Of a stretch of DNA of 64,000 nt, positions 40,939-58,774 are shown one piece after another. The stretch is from Escherichia phage vB_EcoM_PHB13. Under the pieces are notes generated by a model. It saw only the letters and a list, made by a program, of their open reading frames with translations. It was not told where the DNA came from and searched no databases. The stretch is taken from the sequence record MK573636. One strand, written 5' to 3'. Made by a program: the position numbers and the translations under genes. How positions within the stretch are numbered: position 1 is the stretch's first letter; every line of letters begins with the position of its first letter.

Positions 40939-41301
40939 ATGCTAGGTCATTCTAAAATAGAAGATTGCTCATTCAGAGCAATGAAAGATGATTTTTCGGT
41001 CCTGTACGCGTCTATCCGAGAGTTGTTTGTAGATTTTAAGCAATTCAGAGAATACAAAGGCGTTAAGATGCGGGAGTGGGTATTCTGGCCTTTCTATATC
41101 ATTACTCTGTTTTCTATGGTATTTTGTTTTGTCGGGATCACTATCGCTAGTTTTGTCACTTGCGTTTTCCTGATTATCAGGTGTATCATGTTTGCTTTGA
41201 TTGCTGCCCCGTTTATTGTTTCAATCCTTCCGTTAAAATGGCTATTGGATTGGGCTGATAAATCTGATAAAGTAAAGAATGTGATTTGTAAGCGTGTATG
41301 A
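40939..41301 (+). CDS. hypothetical integral membrane protein (2-3 TM helices)
   Basis: ORF track; long hydrophobic stretches. Confidence 0.45.
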   Translation: MLGHSKIEDCSFRAMKDDFSVLYASIRELFVDFKQFREYKGVKMREWVFWPFYIITLFSMVFCFVGITIASFVTCVFLIIRCIMFALIAAPFIVSILPLKWLLDWADKSDKVKNVICKRV

Positions 41302-41308
41302 GGTGAAG

Positions 41309-42673
41309 ATGGATAAAATTAGTCAAATTGTAAACACATTTACTTACCGCAGCCTTGAAAGCATTGTACATAATGAAGCTAAGGAATATGCGATCTATTC
41401 TGCCGAGGAACGCGGGATTCCTCAATTAGTGGATGGGCTTAAACCAGTGCAACGCTTTGTTATGGAGTGCGCACTTCAAAAGAGTAAAGGCGACCGTAAG
41501 AAATTCCGTAAGATGGCAGATATTGGATCTGGTGTTGCTGAGTTGGGTTATCACCACGGGGAAACTAATGCCGTAGAAGCCGGATCACTCATGGCGAATA
41601 CATGGAGCAATAATACTCCACTGCTTGACGGTCAAGGTAACTTCGGATCGCGTTTAGTCCAGAAAGCAGGTGCGGCACGTTATATCTTTGCTCGTGTGCA
41701 TGAAAACTTCTTTAAAATCTATAAAGATATGAATTGCGCACCTAAGCACGAAGATCTGGAACACATCCCGCCAGCATTCTACTTGCCAGTTGTGCCAATG
41801 GTATTGGCTAATGGTATTAGTGGTATTGCTACAGGGTATAAAACTGACATTTTACCGCATTCACTGGAAAGCCTTATTGAATGCACAGAGCTAGCACTTG
41901 CCGGAAAACTGGATAAAGAACCTAGTGTTCAATTCCCAAAATTCACGGGTAAAGTTATCCCGCGAGATGATCGCGATGGTGTGATTCTTGAGGGTACATA
42001 TGAACTAAACGGCAAGACTAAACTGACAATATCAGAAGTTCCTTATAAGTTCGACCGTGAAGAATATGTGGCGGTACTGGATGCGCTGGAAGAAAAAGAT
42101 CTGATTGTATCGTATAATGACCGTTGCTCTAAGGACGGATTCAGATTTGAAGTAACACTGAAACGCGATTATTTCAAAAGCGAAGATGAATCCGCTCGAC
42201 ATGAGCAAATCATGAAGGATTTTAAACTAACGCAGTTAGTAGCCCAGAATATCGTGGTAGTTAATGAACGTGGCTTAGTTGAAGTATTCGAGAAAGCGAG
42301 CGATCTGATCCGTCGATTCGTCGAAATCCGATTAGGGTATGTCGATAAACGCATTGAATTGATGCAAGCGGAAACGCTGGAAGCATACAATTATGCAATG
42401 GCTAAAGCCAAATTTATCGACCTTGTAATTAAGGGCGAAATCGAGCTACAGGGAAAGAAAAAGGCCGAGGTAATGCAATCCATCAATGGACATGAAAAAC
42501 TGCGTCCATACGCCGATAAGCTAGTTTCTATGCCATTGTATAGCGTTACTCAAGAAGAGTATGATCGACTGGTCAAAGATGCCGAGAAACATCATAGTGA
42601 ATATGAGTATTGGACAAAGACGACCGCAATGAAGGAATATAAGAAAGATCTTAAAGAACTTAAGAAGGGTTGA
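41309..42673 (+). CDS. 52: DNA topoisomerase II medium subunit gp52 (GyrA-like)
   Basis: strong similarity to T4 gp52 (GLKPVQRFV, LLDGQGNFGSR, RYIFARV); start at ATG after SD GAGGTGA. Confidence 0.9.
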   Translation: MDKISQIVNTFTYRSLESIVHNEAKEYAIYSAEERGIPQLVDGLKPVQRFVMECALQKSKGDRKKFRKMADIGSGVAELGYHHGETNAVEAGSLMANTWSNNTPLLDGQGNFGSRLVQKAGAARYIFARVHENFFKIYKDMNCAPKHEDLEHIPPAFYLPVVPMVLANGISGIATGYKTDILPHSLESLIECTELALAGKLDKEPSVQFPKFTGKVIPRDDRDGVILEGTYELNGKTKLTISEVPYKFDREEYVAVLDALEEKDLIVSYNDRCSKDGFRFEVTLKRDYFKSEDESARHEQIMKDFKLTQLVAQNIVVVNERGLVEVFEKASDLIRRFVEIRLGYVDKRIELMQAETLEAYNYAMAKAKFIDLVIKGEIELQGKKKAEVMQSINGHEKLRPYADKLVSMPLYSVTQEEYDRLVKDAEKHHSEYEYWTKTTAMKEYKKDLKELKKG

Positions 42674-44446: not shown

Positions 44447-44481
44447 TTGACACCGGATTAAGGGAGTAGTAAGATACTCCC
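44447..44481 (+). promoter_or_regulatory. early promoter TTGACA with stem-loop GGGAGTA-gtaaga-TACTCCC (third copy)
   Basis: read directly. Confidence 0.5.
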
Positions 44482-44508: not shown

Positions 44509-45309
44509 ATGAAAAACATTATCGCTGCGATCGTTCTTTCTACTACGGCTTTCGGTGCTAATGCTGCGTCCTTTGATTGCGCTAAAGCTACTACCAAACC
44601 AGAGAAGTTTATTTGTGCTAATGAGTCAATCTCCGCACTGGATTCTAAACTTAATGAAGTATATGTTAAGGCTGTTAAGATTGATCCATCTCTTAAACAA
44701 GAGCAACGCAACTGGAATAAAACTGTTCGTGATACAATGATCAACATCGGGCAAATACAGCCACTGGAGGCTGTATATAACGCTCAAATCCAAAACTTGA
44801 TGAACGTATTACCTAAAGAAGAAACAGCGTCAGAAAGCGATTCAGAGACTTCTGCGAAGGTTGAAGAAGAACAACCGAAACAAGAAGAAAAAGTGGTAGA
44901 GCAACCGAAGAAAGAAGAGAAAATCTATGGATCTATCACTTACCAGTGCATTGCAAAATTTACATGGAAAATCATTGATGGTATTGAGACAGACAGCCGC
45001 AAAGATCCATTGTATGGAAACTCTACTTATGGCAACAAGGGCGGAAAGCTGAAAATGACCATGACCGAAGGTGAATTGTCTTCTTTCGTATATGTTGATG
45101 AGCGCGAAGTGTTTAAATCAAATCTGACACGCAGCAAACAATATAAAAATATGGTTGTTGGTATGAGCAAACCGGATGTAGCAGGATACTTCAACGAGTA
45201 CAAAATGTGGGTAGGGGAAAACGATGAAATCCGCTTTGAAGTCATCGAGAAAGGTCGCATTAGCTATGATTATGGTACTCAATATGTTTGCGAATATAAG
45301 AAGGGTTAA
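44509..45309 (+). CDS. secreted/periplasmic protein with N-terminal signal peptide and DUF1311 (LprI lysozyme-inhibitor-like) domain
   Basis: signal peptide ...AFGANA/AS; motif FDCAKATTKPEKFICANESISALDSKLNEVY...EQRNW. Confidence 0.55.
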   Translation: MKNIIAAIVLSTTAFGANAASFDCAKATTKPEKFICANESISALDSKLNEVYVKAVKIDPSLKQEQRNWNKTVRDTMINIGQIQPLEAVYNAQIQNLMNVLPKEETASESDSETSAKVEEEQPKQEEKVVEQPKKEEKIYGSITYQCIAKFTWKIIDGIETDSRKDPLYGNSTYGNKGGKLKMTMTEGELSSFVYVDEREVFKSNLTRSKQYKNMVVGMSKPDVAGYFNEYKMWVGENDEIRFEVIEKGRISYDYGTQYVCEYKKG

Positions 45310-45591
45310 ATGATGAAATTTAACAACATGAAGTTTAAAAAAGATTGGTGGGATGCTATGAGAGCTAACGACCGGATCGGAATTGGAAAGGCAGAAAAGA
45401 CAGTTGTTATTGTCAAGTATAAAGCGACGCAAGATCTTTTGATTAAGGAACTCATTCGAGCGGGTAACTATCAAACACCGGAAGGTCTTATTGACATGAT
45501 GGTTGATAACATGTATAGTGACGAACCACCAAACATTAAACAATATTACAAGCAGTATTACCGAAAGTGGCAGAATTACAACCGAAAATAA
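45310..45591 (+). CDS. hypothetical protein
   Basis: ORF track. Confidence 0.35.
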   Translation: MMKFNNMKFKKDWWDAMRANDRIGIGKAEKTVVIVKYKATQDLLIKELIRAGNYQTPEGLIDMMVDNMYSDEPPNIKQYYKQYYRKWQNYNRK

Positions 45592-45614
45592 GTTGTTGAC
45601 GTGAGGATTATATT

Positions 45615-45806
45615 ATGGTAATTTTTAATCGCGATGGTATCATAGTTCGGCAACACCCATTCCTTGAATACTATCAGGTTGAACAATGGGGATATGGGGA
45701 TTGTTCTCGATCATACGGTCAAAGCTGGGGATACCGTACAGTTTTTGAATCAACCGATATTGACAAAGTACGACAGAAAGTTTTAGAACTTCTTAACGAT
45801 AAGTGA
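45615..45806 (+). CDS. hypothetical protein
   Basis: ORF track; SD GAGGATTATATT. Confidence 0.4.
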   Translation: MVIFNRDGIIVRQHPFLEYYQVEQWGYGDCSRSYGQSWGYRTVFESTDIDKVRQKVLELLNDK

Positions 45807-45816
45807 GGATTAAATC

Positions 45817-46185
45817 ATGGAAATTCAAAACAATTACGAAAAATGTGTTATTATCAATGATTTGCAACGTCAATTGCATCATTACGAAACCGATTATAAA
45901 ACAGCAACCAAAACCGGAAAGTTGAAAGTGTGGGAAGTCTGGTATAACCGAAACTATCTGGGAAGCATCCACAAACTTGATCGCAGTGATGTTTATACAA
46001 TGCATGTGGGCGCGTGTGGCGAATCGGATGTAGCATCTAATTTCATGGAAGCACTTGCATTCTATGTAGAATATCTGGTAGACTATATCGAGTTGGAAGA
46101 GGAAGTGGTAGAATTGCTTCCTCCACCGGAAGAAGCGCCGGAAGCAACGATCCTGAAAGCATTAAAGAAAATCTTTGTTAAGTGA
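45817..46185 (+). CDS. hypothetical protein
   Basis: ORF track. Confidence 0.4.
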   Translation: MEIQNNYEKCVIINDLQRQLHHYETDYKTATKTGKLKVWEVWYNRNYLGSIHKLDRSDVYTMHVGACGESDVASNFMEALAFYVEYLVDYIELEEEVVELLPPPEEAPEATILKALKKIFVK

Positions 46186-46193
46186 GGTGAACT

Positions 46194-46526
46194 ATGAAAA
46201 ATGTACTGATTGTGTGGGAACTGATTCCAGAAACTACTGAATTATACATGGTACAGGTTGATAATAAAGAATTTGAAATTCTGAAACGCGTCAACTGCAA
46301 ATATATTAACATTGATGACATGACCCCAGAAATGGACTATGTAAACTATGCTCTCATGCAGCCTAGTTGGATTATGGATGAAACTAAAGCCGACGCCGAA
46401 TCGCTGGGTGTACCGGAAGAAGTATTAGCGAAATGGCATCAATTCAAAGTTGAAATAAAAGAGGGCGAACCGTTTATTCCTAGTGGTATGATCGATGCGG
46501 TGATCGTAACAGGTTTTCATCTGTAA
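46194..46526 (+). CDS. hypothetical protein
   Basis: ORF track. Confidence 0.4.
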   Translation: MKNVLIVWELIPETTELYMVQVDNKEFEILKRVNCKYINIDDMTPEMDYVNYALMQPSWIMDETKADAESLGVPEEVLAKWHQFKVEIKEGEPFIPSGMIDAVIVTGFHL

Positions 46527-46538
46527 GGAGATTATACA

Positions 46539-46871
46539 ATGTTTAACTATGACAAATATGAATCATGGAAAGCGACCGAACTGAAAGAGGCAGCGCGGTT
46601 AATCACACCGCGTCTTTATCCGGTGTTGTTTAGCGCCGATAAAGTAACAAGGGAAGTAAACGAGGCGCTATCGGTTTTAGGCTATCTGATCGATAAAGTA
46701 GAGAAGACATCGGTATTCACAAATAGCGTAGAATATACCAGATATCGAGTGTTTTTAGATTCCTTGCTCGTTGTCATTAAAGCACTAAATGATCATAACT
46801 ACACCATGAACATGACGAAAATAATCGACGAAGCAAGAATTATGACAGAGAATATTTTCGGTAAATTTTGA
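46539..46871 (+). CDS. hypothetical protein, paralogue of 46980..47309 (shared C-terminus ...ENIFGKF)
   Basis: ORF track. Confidence 0.4.
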   Translation: MFNYDKYESWKATELKEAARLITPRLYPVLFSADKVTREVNEALSVLGYLIDKVEKTSVFTNSVEYTRYRVFLDSLLVVIKALNDHNYTMNMTKIIDEARIMTENIFGKF

Positions 46872-46979
46872 TTATGAAAGATGATGAATCATTGAAAATT
46901 GCACTGGTTATGCTATTACAAGGTATAGAATTAGCAAACCACGAAAAAATGTTGAAACAACAGCGTGAAATTATGAGAG

Positions 46980-47309
46980 GTGATTATGATCGAGTTTGAA
47001 ATTGACAACTTTCACGAAAAAGCAGAAGACCTAACCAAAATTTTGATTAGTCGAGGTGCATATAATACGAAAGATATTATAAAAGAAGTTAATGTAGCGA
47101 TGGACGCGATCCGAAAGGAATTTAAACATATTTCAGAGATTGGAGAAAATGGTCATCTTGAAGATGTTGAGCTGGTAGCACTGCGACGCTATTACTTCTT
47201 TGTTGATTGCATCATTGATCTATCTAAAAATTATAGTCATTACATGAAAGATATTGTAAAAGATGCACGTAAGCTGGCAGAGAATGTTTACGGGAAGTTT
47301 CCAGAATGA
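46980..47309 (+). CDS. hypothetical protein, paralogue of 46539..46871 (C-terminus ...ENVYGKF)
   Basis: ORF track. Confidence 0.4.
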   Translation: MIMIEFEIDNFHEKAEDLTKILISRGAYNTKDIIKEVNVAMDAIRKEFKHISEIGENGHLEDVELVALRRYYFFVDCIIDLSKNYSHYMKDIVKDARKLAENVYGKFPE

Positions 47310-47554
47310 AATTAGAACAAGCGATTGTATACTTTGAGATGGGCTATGATATTGCTCGTGTAGAGTGGGAAGATGGTGATTTTGTCCGATTGATTAATCT
47401 TCCAGAAACAGCTATTGCACTGGTCAAAGTAGAAAACGGTATACAACGAAATTACGCGTTCTCTGACGAAGACAAACAAGCCGATGACTGGTACGCTACA
47501 TGTTTTCATCATACAGCGTCAAAATGTGATTCAGGGGCTTCTATGCGCCAATAA
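47306..47554 (+). CDS. hypothetical protein, possible DUF2829/Tad2-like small protein
   Basis: N-terminal pattern L-x-QAI-x5-G-x2-IARVEW and C-terminal DKQADDW; motif-level only. Confidence 0.35.
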   Translation: MKLEQAIVYFEMGYDIARVEWEDGDFVRLINLPETAIALVKVENGIQRNYAFSDEDKQADDWYATCFHHTASKCDSGASMRQ

Positions 47555-47557
47555 AAA

Positions 47558-47584
47558 GAAGGGGAGGCCGAAAGGCTTCCCCTT
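47558..47584. terminator. bidirectional intrinsic terminator (hairpin AAGGGGAGGCC-gaaa-GGCTTCCCCTT, A-run upstream, T-run downstream) between convergent modules
   Basis: read directly. Confidence 0.6.
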
Positions 47585-47588
47585 TAAG

Positions 47589-48278: not shown

Positions 48279-48518
48279 TTATTTAGGTAGTTGACTATCA
48301 CTAGGTTTATCTTGCTCGTTACTATCTTCTGACTGATCTTTATTAAACTCCTTATAAAGTTCTTCCACAAAACGATCATCAATTGGCGTATTGGTATAAG
48401 CCGCAAGACGACGAGCGCAATAGAAGAAAATTTTAGTGAGCATCTTTTCACTAATTAACTTTGACAATAATTTCATTCCGAAATTAGACAAAGCACCAAT
48501 GACGATATTATAGACCAT
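48279..48518 (-). CDS. hypothetical protein between gene 37 and holin (the T4 gp38 position; not gp38-like)
   Basis: ORF track; SD AAGGAGA. Confidence 0.4.
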   Translation of the reverse strand: MVYNIVIGALSNFGMKLLSKLISEKMLTKIFFYCARRLAAYTNTPIDDRFVEELYKEFNKDQSEDSNEQDKPSDSQLPK

Positions 48519-53038: not shown

Positions 53039-53207
53039 AAAGTAACCTCAAAAATTAGTTATAGTTCCGAGTATTTATAGAATGTTAACAAAATATCGCT
53101 TCGCGACGTGCCGTAGGCACTGACTAATTTTTAACCGAAACAAACTTTTCTATATTCTAAAGATCTTTCTTCGTTTTGGTTACATTTTAACCAACTGTAT
53201 AAAAATA

Positions 53208-58209: not shown

Positions 58210-58774
58210 GTGGCAAAAACAAAATTTTGGGATATCGAGACACAGAAAGCGATAAAAGGTAGATTTTATCATGTTGATGGAATATTATACCATTTAAAGG
58301 ATTCTGTATCTGCTGGATTCCGAAAAGAAGGGTCCAGATACAAAAAAAGGTGATGTGGTAAGGGTACGTCTCCATAAAGAAGGATATTTATACTTTACAT
58401 TTTATAACAATGGTCATAAACTTAATCTGTTTGTACATAGAGTTGTCTGGTTTTTAGAGTATGGTACTCAGGTTGAACTAATAGATCACATAGACCAAGA
58501 CAAAACTAACAATAGACCGTCAAACATGAGAGAAGCAACAGAACAGCAAAATCAGTTTAACGTCTCAAAGAAAAAGGCTTGCCATAGCAAATATAAAGGT
58601 GTATCATTATCAACAAGCAAGAAAAAGCCGTGGAAGGCGTATATTGTTATCAATCGAAAGAATATACATCTAGGATACTTTGAGACAGAAGTTGAGGCGG
58701 CTAAGGCTTATGACCGTGCAGCACATGAAAGAGTTGGCGAGTATGCTTATTTAAATTTTCCAAAAAGAGGATGA
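58210..58774 (+). pseudogene. HNH-AP2 homing endonuclease split by frameshift at an A7 tract (N-terminal fragment about 58210..58353, HNH+AP2 portion 58355..58774)
   Basis: HNH motif HRVVWFL...IDHIDQDKTNNRPSNMRE and AP2-like YKGVS...WKAYI...GYFETEVEAAKAYD; removing one A near 58342-58348 joins the frames. Confidence 0.5.

Follow-up and report, generated by a model that had tools for sequence, protein, structure and literature searches.

The window analysed here, a 64,000-nucleotide stretch of Escherichia phage vB_EcoM_PHB13 (sequence record MK573636), comes from a Krischvirus (Straboviridae; RB49, GEC-3S, JSE and Phi1 type) and shows 98.4–98.9% identity to the listed records over 2.6 kb. On its + strand, at 47306..47554, lies a gene whose 82-residue product belongs to the family of the sponge protein Tad2. 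The gene is real and under purifying selection; its product has the sequence signature and the predicted fold of Tad2, and it differs from the canonical Tad2s in its pocket, in a missing insertion and in its charge. The reading that we favour, at slightly under even odds (about 0.45), is that of a divergent Tad2-fold sponge whose specificity cannot be read from the known Tad2s. In this reading the protein is minimal, with a helix at the N-terminus, a sheet of five antiparallel strands, the last of them preceded by a short helix, and a disordered tail of 17 residues. Its gene would close an accessory operon, driven by sigma-70, that lies between topoisomerase gene 52 and holin gene t. By homology, it would form a small homo-oligomer and sequester a host nucleotide-derived immune signal, the sequestration site being the pocket-equivalent residues W21, D23, Y50, S/T53, E55, D56 and K57. 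The oligomerisation, the ligand binding and the anti-defence role of the Krischvirus protein are inferred, as is the early expression of its gene.

Family membership, fold and conservation

The gene and the two parts of its product are as follows.

47306..47554, + strand: Tad2-like coding sequence, ATG start, 82 amino acids plus stop, from the open reading frame (ORF) scan; product MKLEQAIVYFEMGYDIARVEWEDGDFVRLINLPETAIALVKVENGIQRNYAFSDEDKQADDWYATCFHHTASKCDSGASMRQ
47306..47500, + strand: predicted Tad2-like domain, residues 1–65 (PF11195/DUF2829 and AlphaFold2 (AF2) model)
47501..47551, + strand: C-terminal tail, residues 66–82, predicted to be disordered (from about residue 68), predicted local distance difference test (pLDDT) 32–44

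Against Pfam, the protein matched PF11195 ("Thoeris anti-defense 2-like domain", formerly DUF2829) with 28.1 bits for a gathering score of 25 (E 3.1e-6, profile positions 1–71 of 73). The near-identical cluster representative P0001 scored 27.9 bits, and two metagenomic relatives, P0004 and P0005, passed independently (26.1 and 25.5 bits, respectively); the margin over the gathering score is thin but consistent across the subfamily. The family-wide framework residues R18, W21 and D61-W62 are present, at columns invariant in 114/114 canonical Tad2s, a set built from the best matches to a profile of SPO1 Tad2 and ModTad2. An earlier note had proposed a DUF2829 protein from two motifs, both of which are exact in the product (L3-x-Q5A6I7-x5-G13-x2-I16ARVEW21 and D56KQADDW62), and its family claim is borne out by the Pfam match, by which the protein is a member of the DUF2829/Tad2-like domain family. 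In PHROGs it falls in phrog_1048, whose function class is unknown. The orthologues, among them RB49p255 (NP_891826.1) and GEC-3S BN201_0255, are called "hypothetical protein" in all GenBank records checked, and UniRef names them "Thoeris anti-defense 2-like domain-containing protein" (n=10, Tax=Krischvirus). The domain assignment is thus already public through UniRef and not new; what is added here is that the protein stands outside the characterised clade, lacks the insertion, has a remodelled and acidic pocket and belongs to a very small subfamily.

The AF2 model was computed for a single chain from an alignment limited to the four subfamily sequences; neither canonical Tad2s nor templates went into it, and its mean pLDDT is 76.7 (80–89 for residues 1–60). 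It shows a helix (residues 3–11), four strands (14–21, 25–32, 36–43 and 46–50), a second helix (54–58) and a last strand (62–67), which is the order of elements of SPO1 Tad2 minus its beta2-beta3 insertion. When the model was compared with the PDB using Foldseek, the top 14 matches were all Tad2 structures, namely SPO1 Tad2, apo and bound to glycocyclic ADP-ribose (gcADPR), and ModTad2, apo and bound to histidine-ADP-ribose (His-ADPR), with probabilities of 0.99–1.00 and template modelling (TM) scores of 0.52–0.60. The best of them was SPO1 Tad2 (8smf_H, E 4e-3, TM 0.55/0.60), and the Tad2 matches were followed by unrelated Sm-like folds with probabilities below 0.4. Against BFVD, the protein's own orthologue came first, and then about 20 phage "Tad2-like domain" proteins at probability 1.00. 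Since phmmer searches of the PDB sequences, with the protein and with the four-sequence profile, gave no Tad2 match, the link to the solved structures passes through the fold. As the predicted fold significantly matches Tad2 structures alone, we consider the assignment of a Tad2 fold to the model sound. The refuting condition set by the earlier note, absence of a DUF2829 profile match together with a different predicted fold, thus fails on each point; the anti-Thoeris immune-signal sponge that the note had added is not supported as stated (see below). The tail formed by residues 66–82 is not conserved among relatives and, in the alignments, has no counterpart in the canonical Tad2s or in the relative from a Klebsiella phage.

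The gene is kept in all of the approximately 58 Krischvirus records, at 96–99% amino acid identity, and no intact genome without it was found. When five Krischvirus copies were compared at the nucleotide level, each pair differed by 3–7 synonymous and 0–1 non-synonymous codon changes. The sole non-synonymous change is D31N (codon 31, 47396-47398), private to the window copy and located in the region of the short beta2-beta3 loop; RB49, GEC-3S, two IMG/VR contigs and P0001 all have D31. The Krischvirus copies are thus under strong purifying selection, and the gene is no chance ORF. In the metagenomic relatives P0004 (59% identity) and P0005 (49%), the gene likewise comes last ahead of a convergent holin t, with a topoisomerase gene upstream; dN/dS against these two was not computable, dS being saturated, and the subfamily signature is nevertheless retained.

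An exhaustive phmmer/HMMER pass over 1.84 billion representatives returned only P0001, P0004, P0005 and two damaged copies (4 clusters), a word-indexed homologue search found nothing beyond these, and a pattern scan of IMG/VR for further members gave Krischvirus contigs only. Five other candidates, P0003, P0006 and P0008–P0010, were discarded as spurious, being FN3-repeat proteins matched over a single beta-hairpin. P0002, a metagenomic protein of 83 residues that might have passed for a C-terminal variant, has the N-terminal ~58 residues fused to a translation of the antisense strand (compare with the − strand ORF 47312..47512), which makes it a chimera of fold-back assembly rather than a genuine isoform. 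Among cultured phages, the sole other members are the 68-residue proteins of two Klebsiella N4-like phages, VLCpiP4a and VLCpiP4b. The subfamily is a very small one of enterobacterial phages, covered by no screen.

The VLCpiP4a protein (P4a_00012, Schitoviridae), which is uncharacterised, scored 33 bits against the hidden Markov model (HMM) of the subfamily, with reciprocal tblastn matches, and has in common with the Krischvirus protein the signature R-x-[ED]-W-x-D ... Y-x-x-[ST]-D-x-D-K-x-x-D-W. It has no C-terminal tail, and its PF11195 match (21 bits) is below the gathering score. Its gene (L004 1453..1659; ON602749.1 8420-8626) lies between two tail protein genes of this N4-like phage, an unusual position for a presumed counter-defence gene.

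So narrow a distribution would suit a functionally decayed or dispensable Tad2 relic, or a protein that serves the phage internally and has no part in defence, and so would the published screen in which 19/84 sponge homologues inhibited nothing. We nevertheless hold this explanation to be improbable: the selection on the Krischvirus copies is strong, the locus is kept in relatives at 49–59% identity, and the gene is missing from no intact genome.

Divergence from the characterised Tad2 proteins

The ligands of several Tad2s are known. SPO1 Tad2 sequesters gcADPR, and HgmTad2 binds cyclic dinucleotides as well; ModTad2, which served as bait to discover His-ADPR, binds this molecule rather than gcADPR, and holds cyclic UMP or cyclic CMP at a second site. 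N7-cyclic ADP-ribose (N7-cADPR) is also among the ligands sequestered by Tad2 members, and Tad2_71 blocks Thoeris types I, II and IV. In SPO1 Tad2, gcADPR is bound by W25, N26, W73 and D79, with T78, I63 and T65, and with D67, H71 and S76 coordinating water; in HgmTad2 the corresponding list is W21, N22, G23, W87, L88, S90, T92 and D93, and binding is lost in the mutants W21A/N22A and S90A/T92A/D93A. The diphosphate of gcADPR is contacted by N26 in SPO1 Tad2 (N22/G23 in HgmTad2). According to Li et al., the gcADPR site is highly conserved among Tad2s.

We took the SPO1 sequence from the PDB and the published table, checked its numbering against the gcADPR-binding residues, and mapped the columns onto the window protein. 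The pocket-equivalent set consists of W21, E22, D23, V40, V42, Y50, S53, E55 and D56, plus K57. The counts below give the canonical Tad2s with the SPO1 residue, or the residues named.

SPO1 G24, 113/114 canonical: Krischvirus E20 (E/D in the subfamily)
SPO1 W25, 114/114 canonical: Krischvirus W21
SPO1 N26, 114/114 canonical: Krischvirus E22 (E/D in the subfamily)
SPO1 G27, 114/114 canonical: Krischvirus D23
SPO1 W73, 114/114 canonical: Krischvirus Y50
SPO1 S76, 113/114 canonical: Krischvirus S53 (S/T in the subfamily)
SPO1 T/S78, 103/114 canonical: Krischvirus E55
SPO1 D79, 113/114 canonical: Krischvirus D56
SPO1 V/I80, 103/114 canonical: Krischvirus K57 (invariant in the subfamily)
SPO1 L81, 113/114 canonical: Krischvirus Q58
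SPO1 D84-W85, 114/114 canonical: Krischvirus D61-W62

Part of the core and pocket is retained (R18, W21, S53, D56 and D61-W62, which are R22, W25, S76, D79 and D84-W85 in SPO1 Tad2). In the W-N-G loop between beta1 and beta2, W21 is kept, and the asparagine and the glycine are replaced, by E/D and D respectively, throughout the Krischvirus group. The pocket motif W-x-x-S-x-[TS]-D reads Y50-A-F-S53-D-E55-D56; Tad2_79, which is active, departs from this motif too. Altogether, acidic residues replace three of the seven direct gcADPR contacts or invariant neighbours, and one tryptophan has become a tyrosine. Across the subfamily alignment these positions are either fixed or vary conservatively; the replacements are a lineage signature and not a sign of decay. 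Since the pocket-equivalent site is much more acidic than, and chemically different from, that of every characterised Tad2, the ligand is probably not bound in the way in which SPO1 Tad2 binds 1''-3' gcADPR.

Several of these observations, and others made on the whole domain, weigh against the sponge reading that we favour. Five canonical invariants are altered (G24 to E, N26 to E, G27 to D, W73 to Y and L81 to Q) as well as T/S78, which is E, and acidic residues at the N26 and G27 positions should disfavour a diphosphate ligand. An HMM of the 114 canonical Tad2s gave the window protein 9.8 bits (compare with 108.6 for SPO1 Tad2), and hhalign of the subfamily against the canonical Tad2s gave a probability of 28% over the N-terminal 31 residues only, a result unusable as support. 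The net charge of the domain is −8 over 65 residues, and −7 to −11 in the relatives, for a canonical mean of −1.7 and a minimum of −5 (n=114). The alpha2 insertion is absent, strands 25–32 and 36–43 being joined by a 3-residue loop, and without it the pocket-forming tetramer may fail to assemble. Finally, Tad2_80, the tested protein closest in architecture, inhibited 0/7 systems, a result that says nothing direct about the Krischvirus protein. The window protein is also not among the 2,251 matches to the profile of SPO1 Tad2 and ModTad2, and no tested Tad2 scored above 14 bits against the subfamily HMM.

The part played by the missing insertion is known from the solved structures. In SPO1 Tad2 it comprises residues 36–59 (24 residues, with helix alpha2) and builds the V-shaped dimer, one of the two oligomer interfaces (among the characterised sponges the dimer is V- or X-shaped); in HgmTad2 it is longer (residues 32–72) and builds the cyclic-dinucleotide pocket. 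Compared with SPO1 Tad2 (Gp34.65; PDB 8SME/8SMF/8SMG), the type I Thoeris gcADPR sponge, the Krischvirus protein has the same series of elements (alpha1, beta1, W-loop, beta2, beta3, beta4, short helix, beta5) and a similar size (82 and 89 residues), but it shows only about 18% identity, lacks the insertion with its F44, and reads W-E-D, Y, E and K-Q where SPO1 Tad2 has W-N-G, W73, T78 and V80-L81; its net charge is −8 and not about −3, and it has the extra disordered C-terminal tail. HgmTad2/AcrIIA7 (PDB 8KBI) and ModTad2 (PDB 8V3E/9EIB) both have the canonical W-N-G and W-x-x-S-x-[TS]-D, and their long insertions form a second, cyclic-nucleotide pocket. Because only a 3-residue loop stands in that place, the Krischvirus protein cannot have this second pocket.

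Among the tested proteins, the nearest in architecture is Tad2_80 (Hadary et al. 2025; an IMG/VR metagenomic protein of 73 residues), which is minimal, insertion-less and acidic (net charge −6) like the Krischvirus protein. Their W-loops are both acidic (L-E-W-P-D-D-G in Tad2_80 and V-E-W-E-D-G-D in the Krischvirus protein), and the C-terminal motif is S-T-G-D-M-S-G-T-D-W in the former and S-D-E-D-K-Q-A-D-D-W in the latter; the subfamily HMM aligns with Tad2_80 over the full domain but weakly (10.8 bits).

Possible roles of the Krischvirus protein

Another proposal makes the protein a classical Tad2, which would hold 1''-3' gcADPR in the canonical pocket between protomers and thereby neutralise type I Thoeris. 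The fold and the Pfam membership are in keeping with it, W21, S53 and D56 are kept, an aromatic residue (Y50) occupies the W73 position, and two tested proteins without W-N-G, Tad2_72 and Tad2_79, inhibit type I Thoeris, so that the canonical motif is not strictly needed. However, the changes N26 to E, G27 to D and T78 to E bring three extra acidic side chains per protomer to the diphosphate and ribose hydroxyl contacts, the alpha2 dimer interface is absent from a protein far outside the canonical clade, the minimal acidic Tad2_80 is inactive on type I Thoeris, and the conservation of the site reported by Li et al. does not extend to the Krischvirus protein. We therefore give little credence to a classical gcADPR sponge, and the anti-Thoeris role put forward in the earlier note, although plausible, is not supported as stated for a protein outside the characterised clade, with pocket residues replaced and the beta2-beta3 insertion absent.

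The published activities of relatives help to judge how much a changed pocket matters. We re-read Table S2 of Hadary et al. using the authors' scoring rule, in which a reduction in defence of at least 10-fold counts as inhibition, for seven signalling systems. At least one system was inhibited by 10/12 proteins with W-N-G and by 3/6 without it: Tad2_72 (A-W-P-K-N) acts on type I Thoeris, Tad2_75 on one cyclic-oligonucleotide-based antiphage signalling system (CBASS), and Tad2_79 (K-W-S-K-D) on types I and IV and one CBASS, whereas Tad2_69, Tad2_80 and Tad2_81 are inactive. From these proportions, a non-canonical pocket lowers the chance of activity without abolishing it. The 19/84 sponge homologues that inhibited none of the seven systems include Tad2_69, _78, _80, _81 and _84, and the authors of the survey suggest that inactive homologues may bind signals of undiscovered systems.

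A narrower form of the sponge reading would be that the Krischvirus and Klebsiella N4-like proteins are "mini-Tad2" sponges whose pocket has been remodelled into an acidic one (W-[ED]-D, Y, E-D-K), for a signal not covered by the known Tad2s. This signal might come from an undescribed signalling defence system of Enterobacteriaceae, or the ligand might be held through a bridging metal or a basic moiety; so specific a proposal seems to us a long shot.

The acidic character of the domain also raises another possibility, that the Tad2 fold serves as a scaffold for a role other than that of a sponge, for example as a small, very acidic inhibitor that would bind a host protein by mimicking a protein or nucleic acid, in the manner of other small acidic inhibitors of phages. 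Aspartate and glutamate make up 21–25% of the subfamily sequences and at most 15% of the canonical ones (n=114), the net charge of −8 over 65 residues points the same way, and the helix before the last strand is polar (S-D-E-D-K-Q-A-D-D, compared with S-x-T-D-[VI]-L-A-E-D in canonical Tad2s). The equivalent interval of T4, from 52 to t, encodes the protein-binding inhibitors AsiA and Arn, which we count for such a role, and the annotation of RB49p259 mentions similarity to a T4 protein from the AsiA-MotA region. AcrIIA7, a DUF2829 protein, was originally isolated as an inhibitor of Cas9, but later work showed that it sequesters gcADPR and cyclic dinucleotides. No target for a non-sponge role is identifiable, and the most conserved residues of the subfamily include the pocket-equivalent W21, D23, V42, Y50 and D56, although the enrichment of pocket positions among invariant subfamily columns is weak (5/16, compared with about 2.7 expected). 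On balance we consider a non-sponge role rather unlikely.

Returning to the divergent sponge, T-even-type phages are known to meet signalling defences of this sort. Type IV Thoeris was found in E. coli and restricts T-even phages, and TadIV-1 (T4 Vs.3), the N7-cADPR sponge of Straboviridae, shows that T-even-type phages are under pressure from TIR signalling. TadIV-1 is, like the protein studied here, a small protein of T-even-type Enterobacteriaceae phages, and it is an anti-Thoeris sponge; however, it has no recognisable domain and forms a helical dimer, unrelated to the Tad2 fold, whose flexible pocket is N-terminal, which rules out that the Krischvirus protein is TadIV-1. TadIII-1, which comes from a study of Pseudomonas phages, was ruled out as well. 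Our search of the literature found no data on signal binding or phage rescue by this subfamily and no link of RB49 or Krischvirus to Tad2 or Thoeris, and neither the sequence of the protein nor RB49 or Krischvirus was found among the listed supplement entries of two large sponge surveys.

Should the protein be active, it would be the first documented counter-defence protein of the Tad2 family in T-even-type coliphages, for which Acb1, Acb2 and TadIV-1 are known so far. It would also be a natural minimal Tad2 fold, with neither the insertion nor the W-N-G loop, and would help to establish which parts a Tad2 needs to oligomerise and to select its ligand. The pocket chemistry has no match among the tested Tad2s, which makes the protein a reasonable bait for immune signals of Enterobacteriaceae that are still unassigned. 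An inactive protein would instead warn against giving the name "Thoeris anti-defense 2" on the strength of a Pfam match alone, as has been done in UniRef.

Locus and neighbouring genes

The Tad2-like gene comes last in a run of rightward ORFs, all small and tightly packed, that form an accessory operon. The run starts past rIIA, rIIB and the topoisomerase subunit gene 52 (41294..42673, PF00521) and converges on holin t (PF11031, 206.7 bits), beyond which lies the distal long tail fibre gene. We found no Acb2, no Tad1 and no second Tad2-like gene in the window. The sites around the gene are the following.

44447..44475, + strand: sigma-70-type promoter-like site, TTGACA-17-TAAGAT, from the consensus scan; a promoter is annotated at the same site in GEC-3S
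45491-45519, + strand: second sigma-70 consensus match, TTGACA-17-TATAGT, from the consensus scan
47306..47309, + strand: ATGA start/stop overlap of the Tad2-like gene with the upstream ORF 46980..47309, from the sequence and the ORF list
47558..47585, both strands: hairpin between the convergent Tad2-like gene and holin t, 12-bp GC-rich stem and GAAA loop

Several sigma-70 promoters are annotated across the run in GEC-3S, and the site at 44447..44475 is the one that lies closest to the Tad2-like gene on its upstream side. It would drive nine tightly packed ORFs (44509..47554), the Tad2-like gene being the last, and the ATGA overlap suggests translational coupling of this gene with ORF 46980..47309. 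The total number of sigma-70 consensus sites is not above the shuffle expectation, and these sites are weak evidence. A scan of the window found no T4-type late promoter TATAAATA near the Tad2-like gene on the + strand; the exact TATAAATA motifs in the 64 kb are two (53072-53079 and 58385-58392), both on the − strand in the tail-fibre region, which is fewer than expected by chance (mean of 5.2 in shuffles). With sigma-70 sites upstream and no TATAAATA on the + strand nearby, the gene is presumably expressed early.

The hairpin begins four bases past the stop codon of the Tad2-like gene. Folded as + strand RNA it has a free energy of −23.6 kcal/mol (z −4.06, 0/200 shuffles as stable), and as − strand RNA −17.5 kcal/mol (z −1.1). 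A simple consensus terminator scan did not flag it, and the GenBank record of GEC-3S annotates its counterpart as a terminator on both strands. It is likely a bidirectional intrinsic terminator, in agreement with the location that the earlier note had given for the gene, just upstream of such an element.

An ORF antisense to the gene (47312..47512, 66 amino acids, − strand) was set aside, being without homologues or domain support. The first ORF past the promoter annotated in GEC-3S (44509..45309, + strand, 266 amino acids), equivalent to RB49p262 and "hypothetical" in public records, matches PF07007 LprI (lysozyme inhibitor) over residues 24–76 (29.6 bits for a cutoff of 22). Directly upstream of the Tad2-like gene, two ORFs of about 110 amino acids on the + strand, 46539..46871 and 46980..47309, both fall in phrog_9457 (E 3e-43 and 4e-56, respectively) and show 37% identity across their C-terminal 43 residues; by sequence comparison the two are tandem paralogues that have diverged. 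ORFs of comparable size occupy the corresponding upstream positions in L002 and L003, two distant relatives. On the other side, between holin t and the distal tail fibre gene, ORF 48279..48518 (− strand, 79 amino acids) belongs to phrog_402; RB49 annotates overlapping alternatives there, "Dc5" and a hypothetical protein, and the L003 counterpart matches PF26925 Phage_PM2_Gpl.

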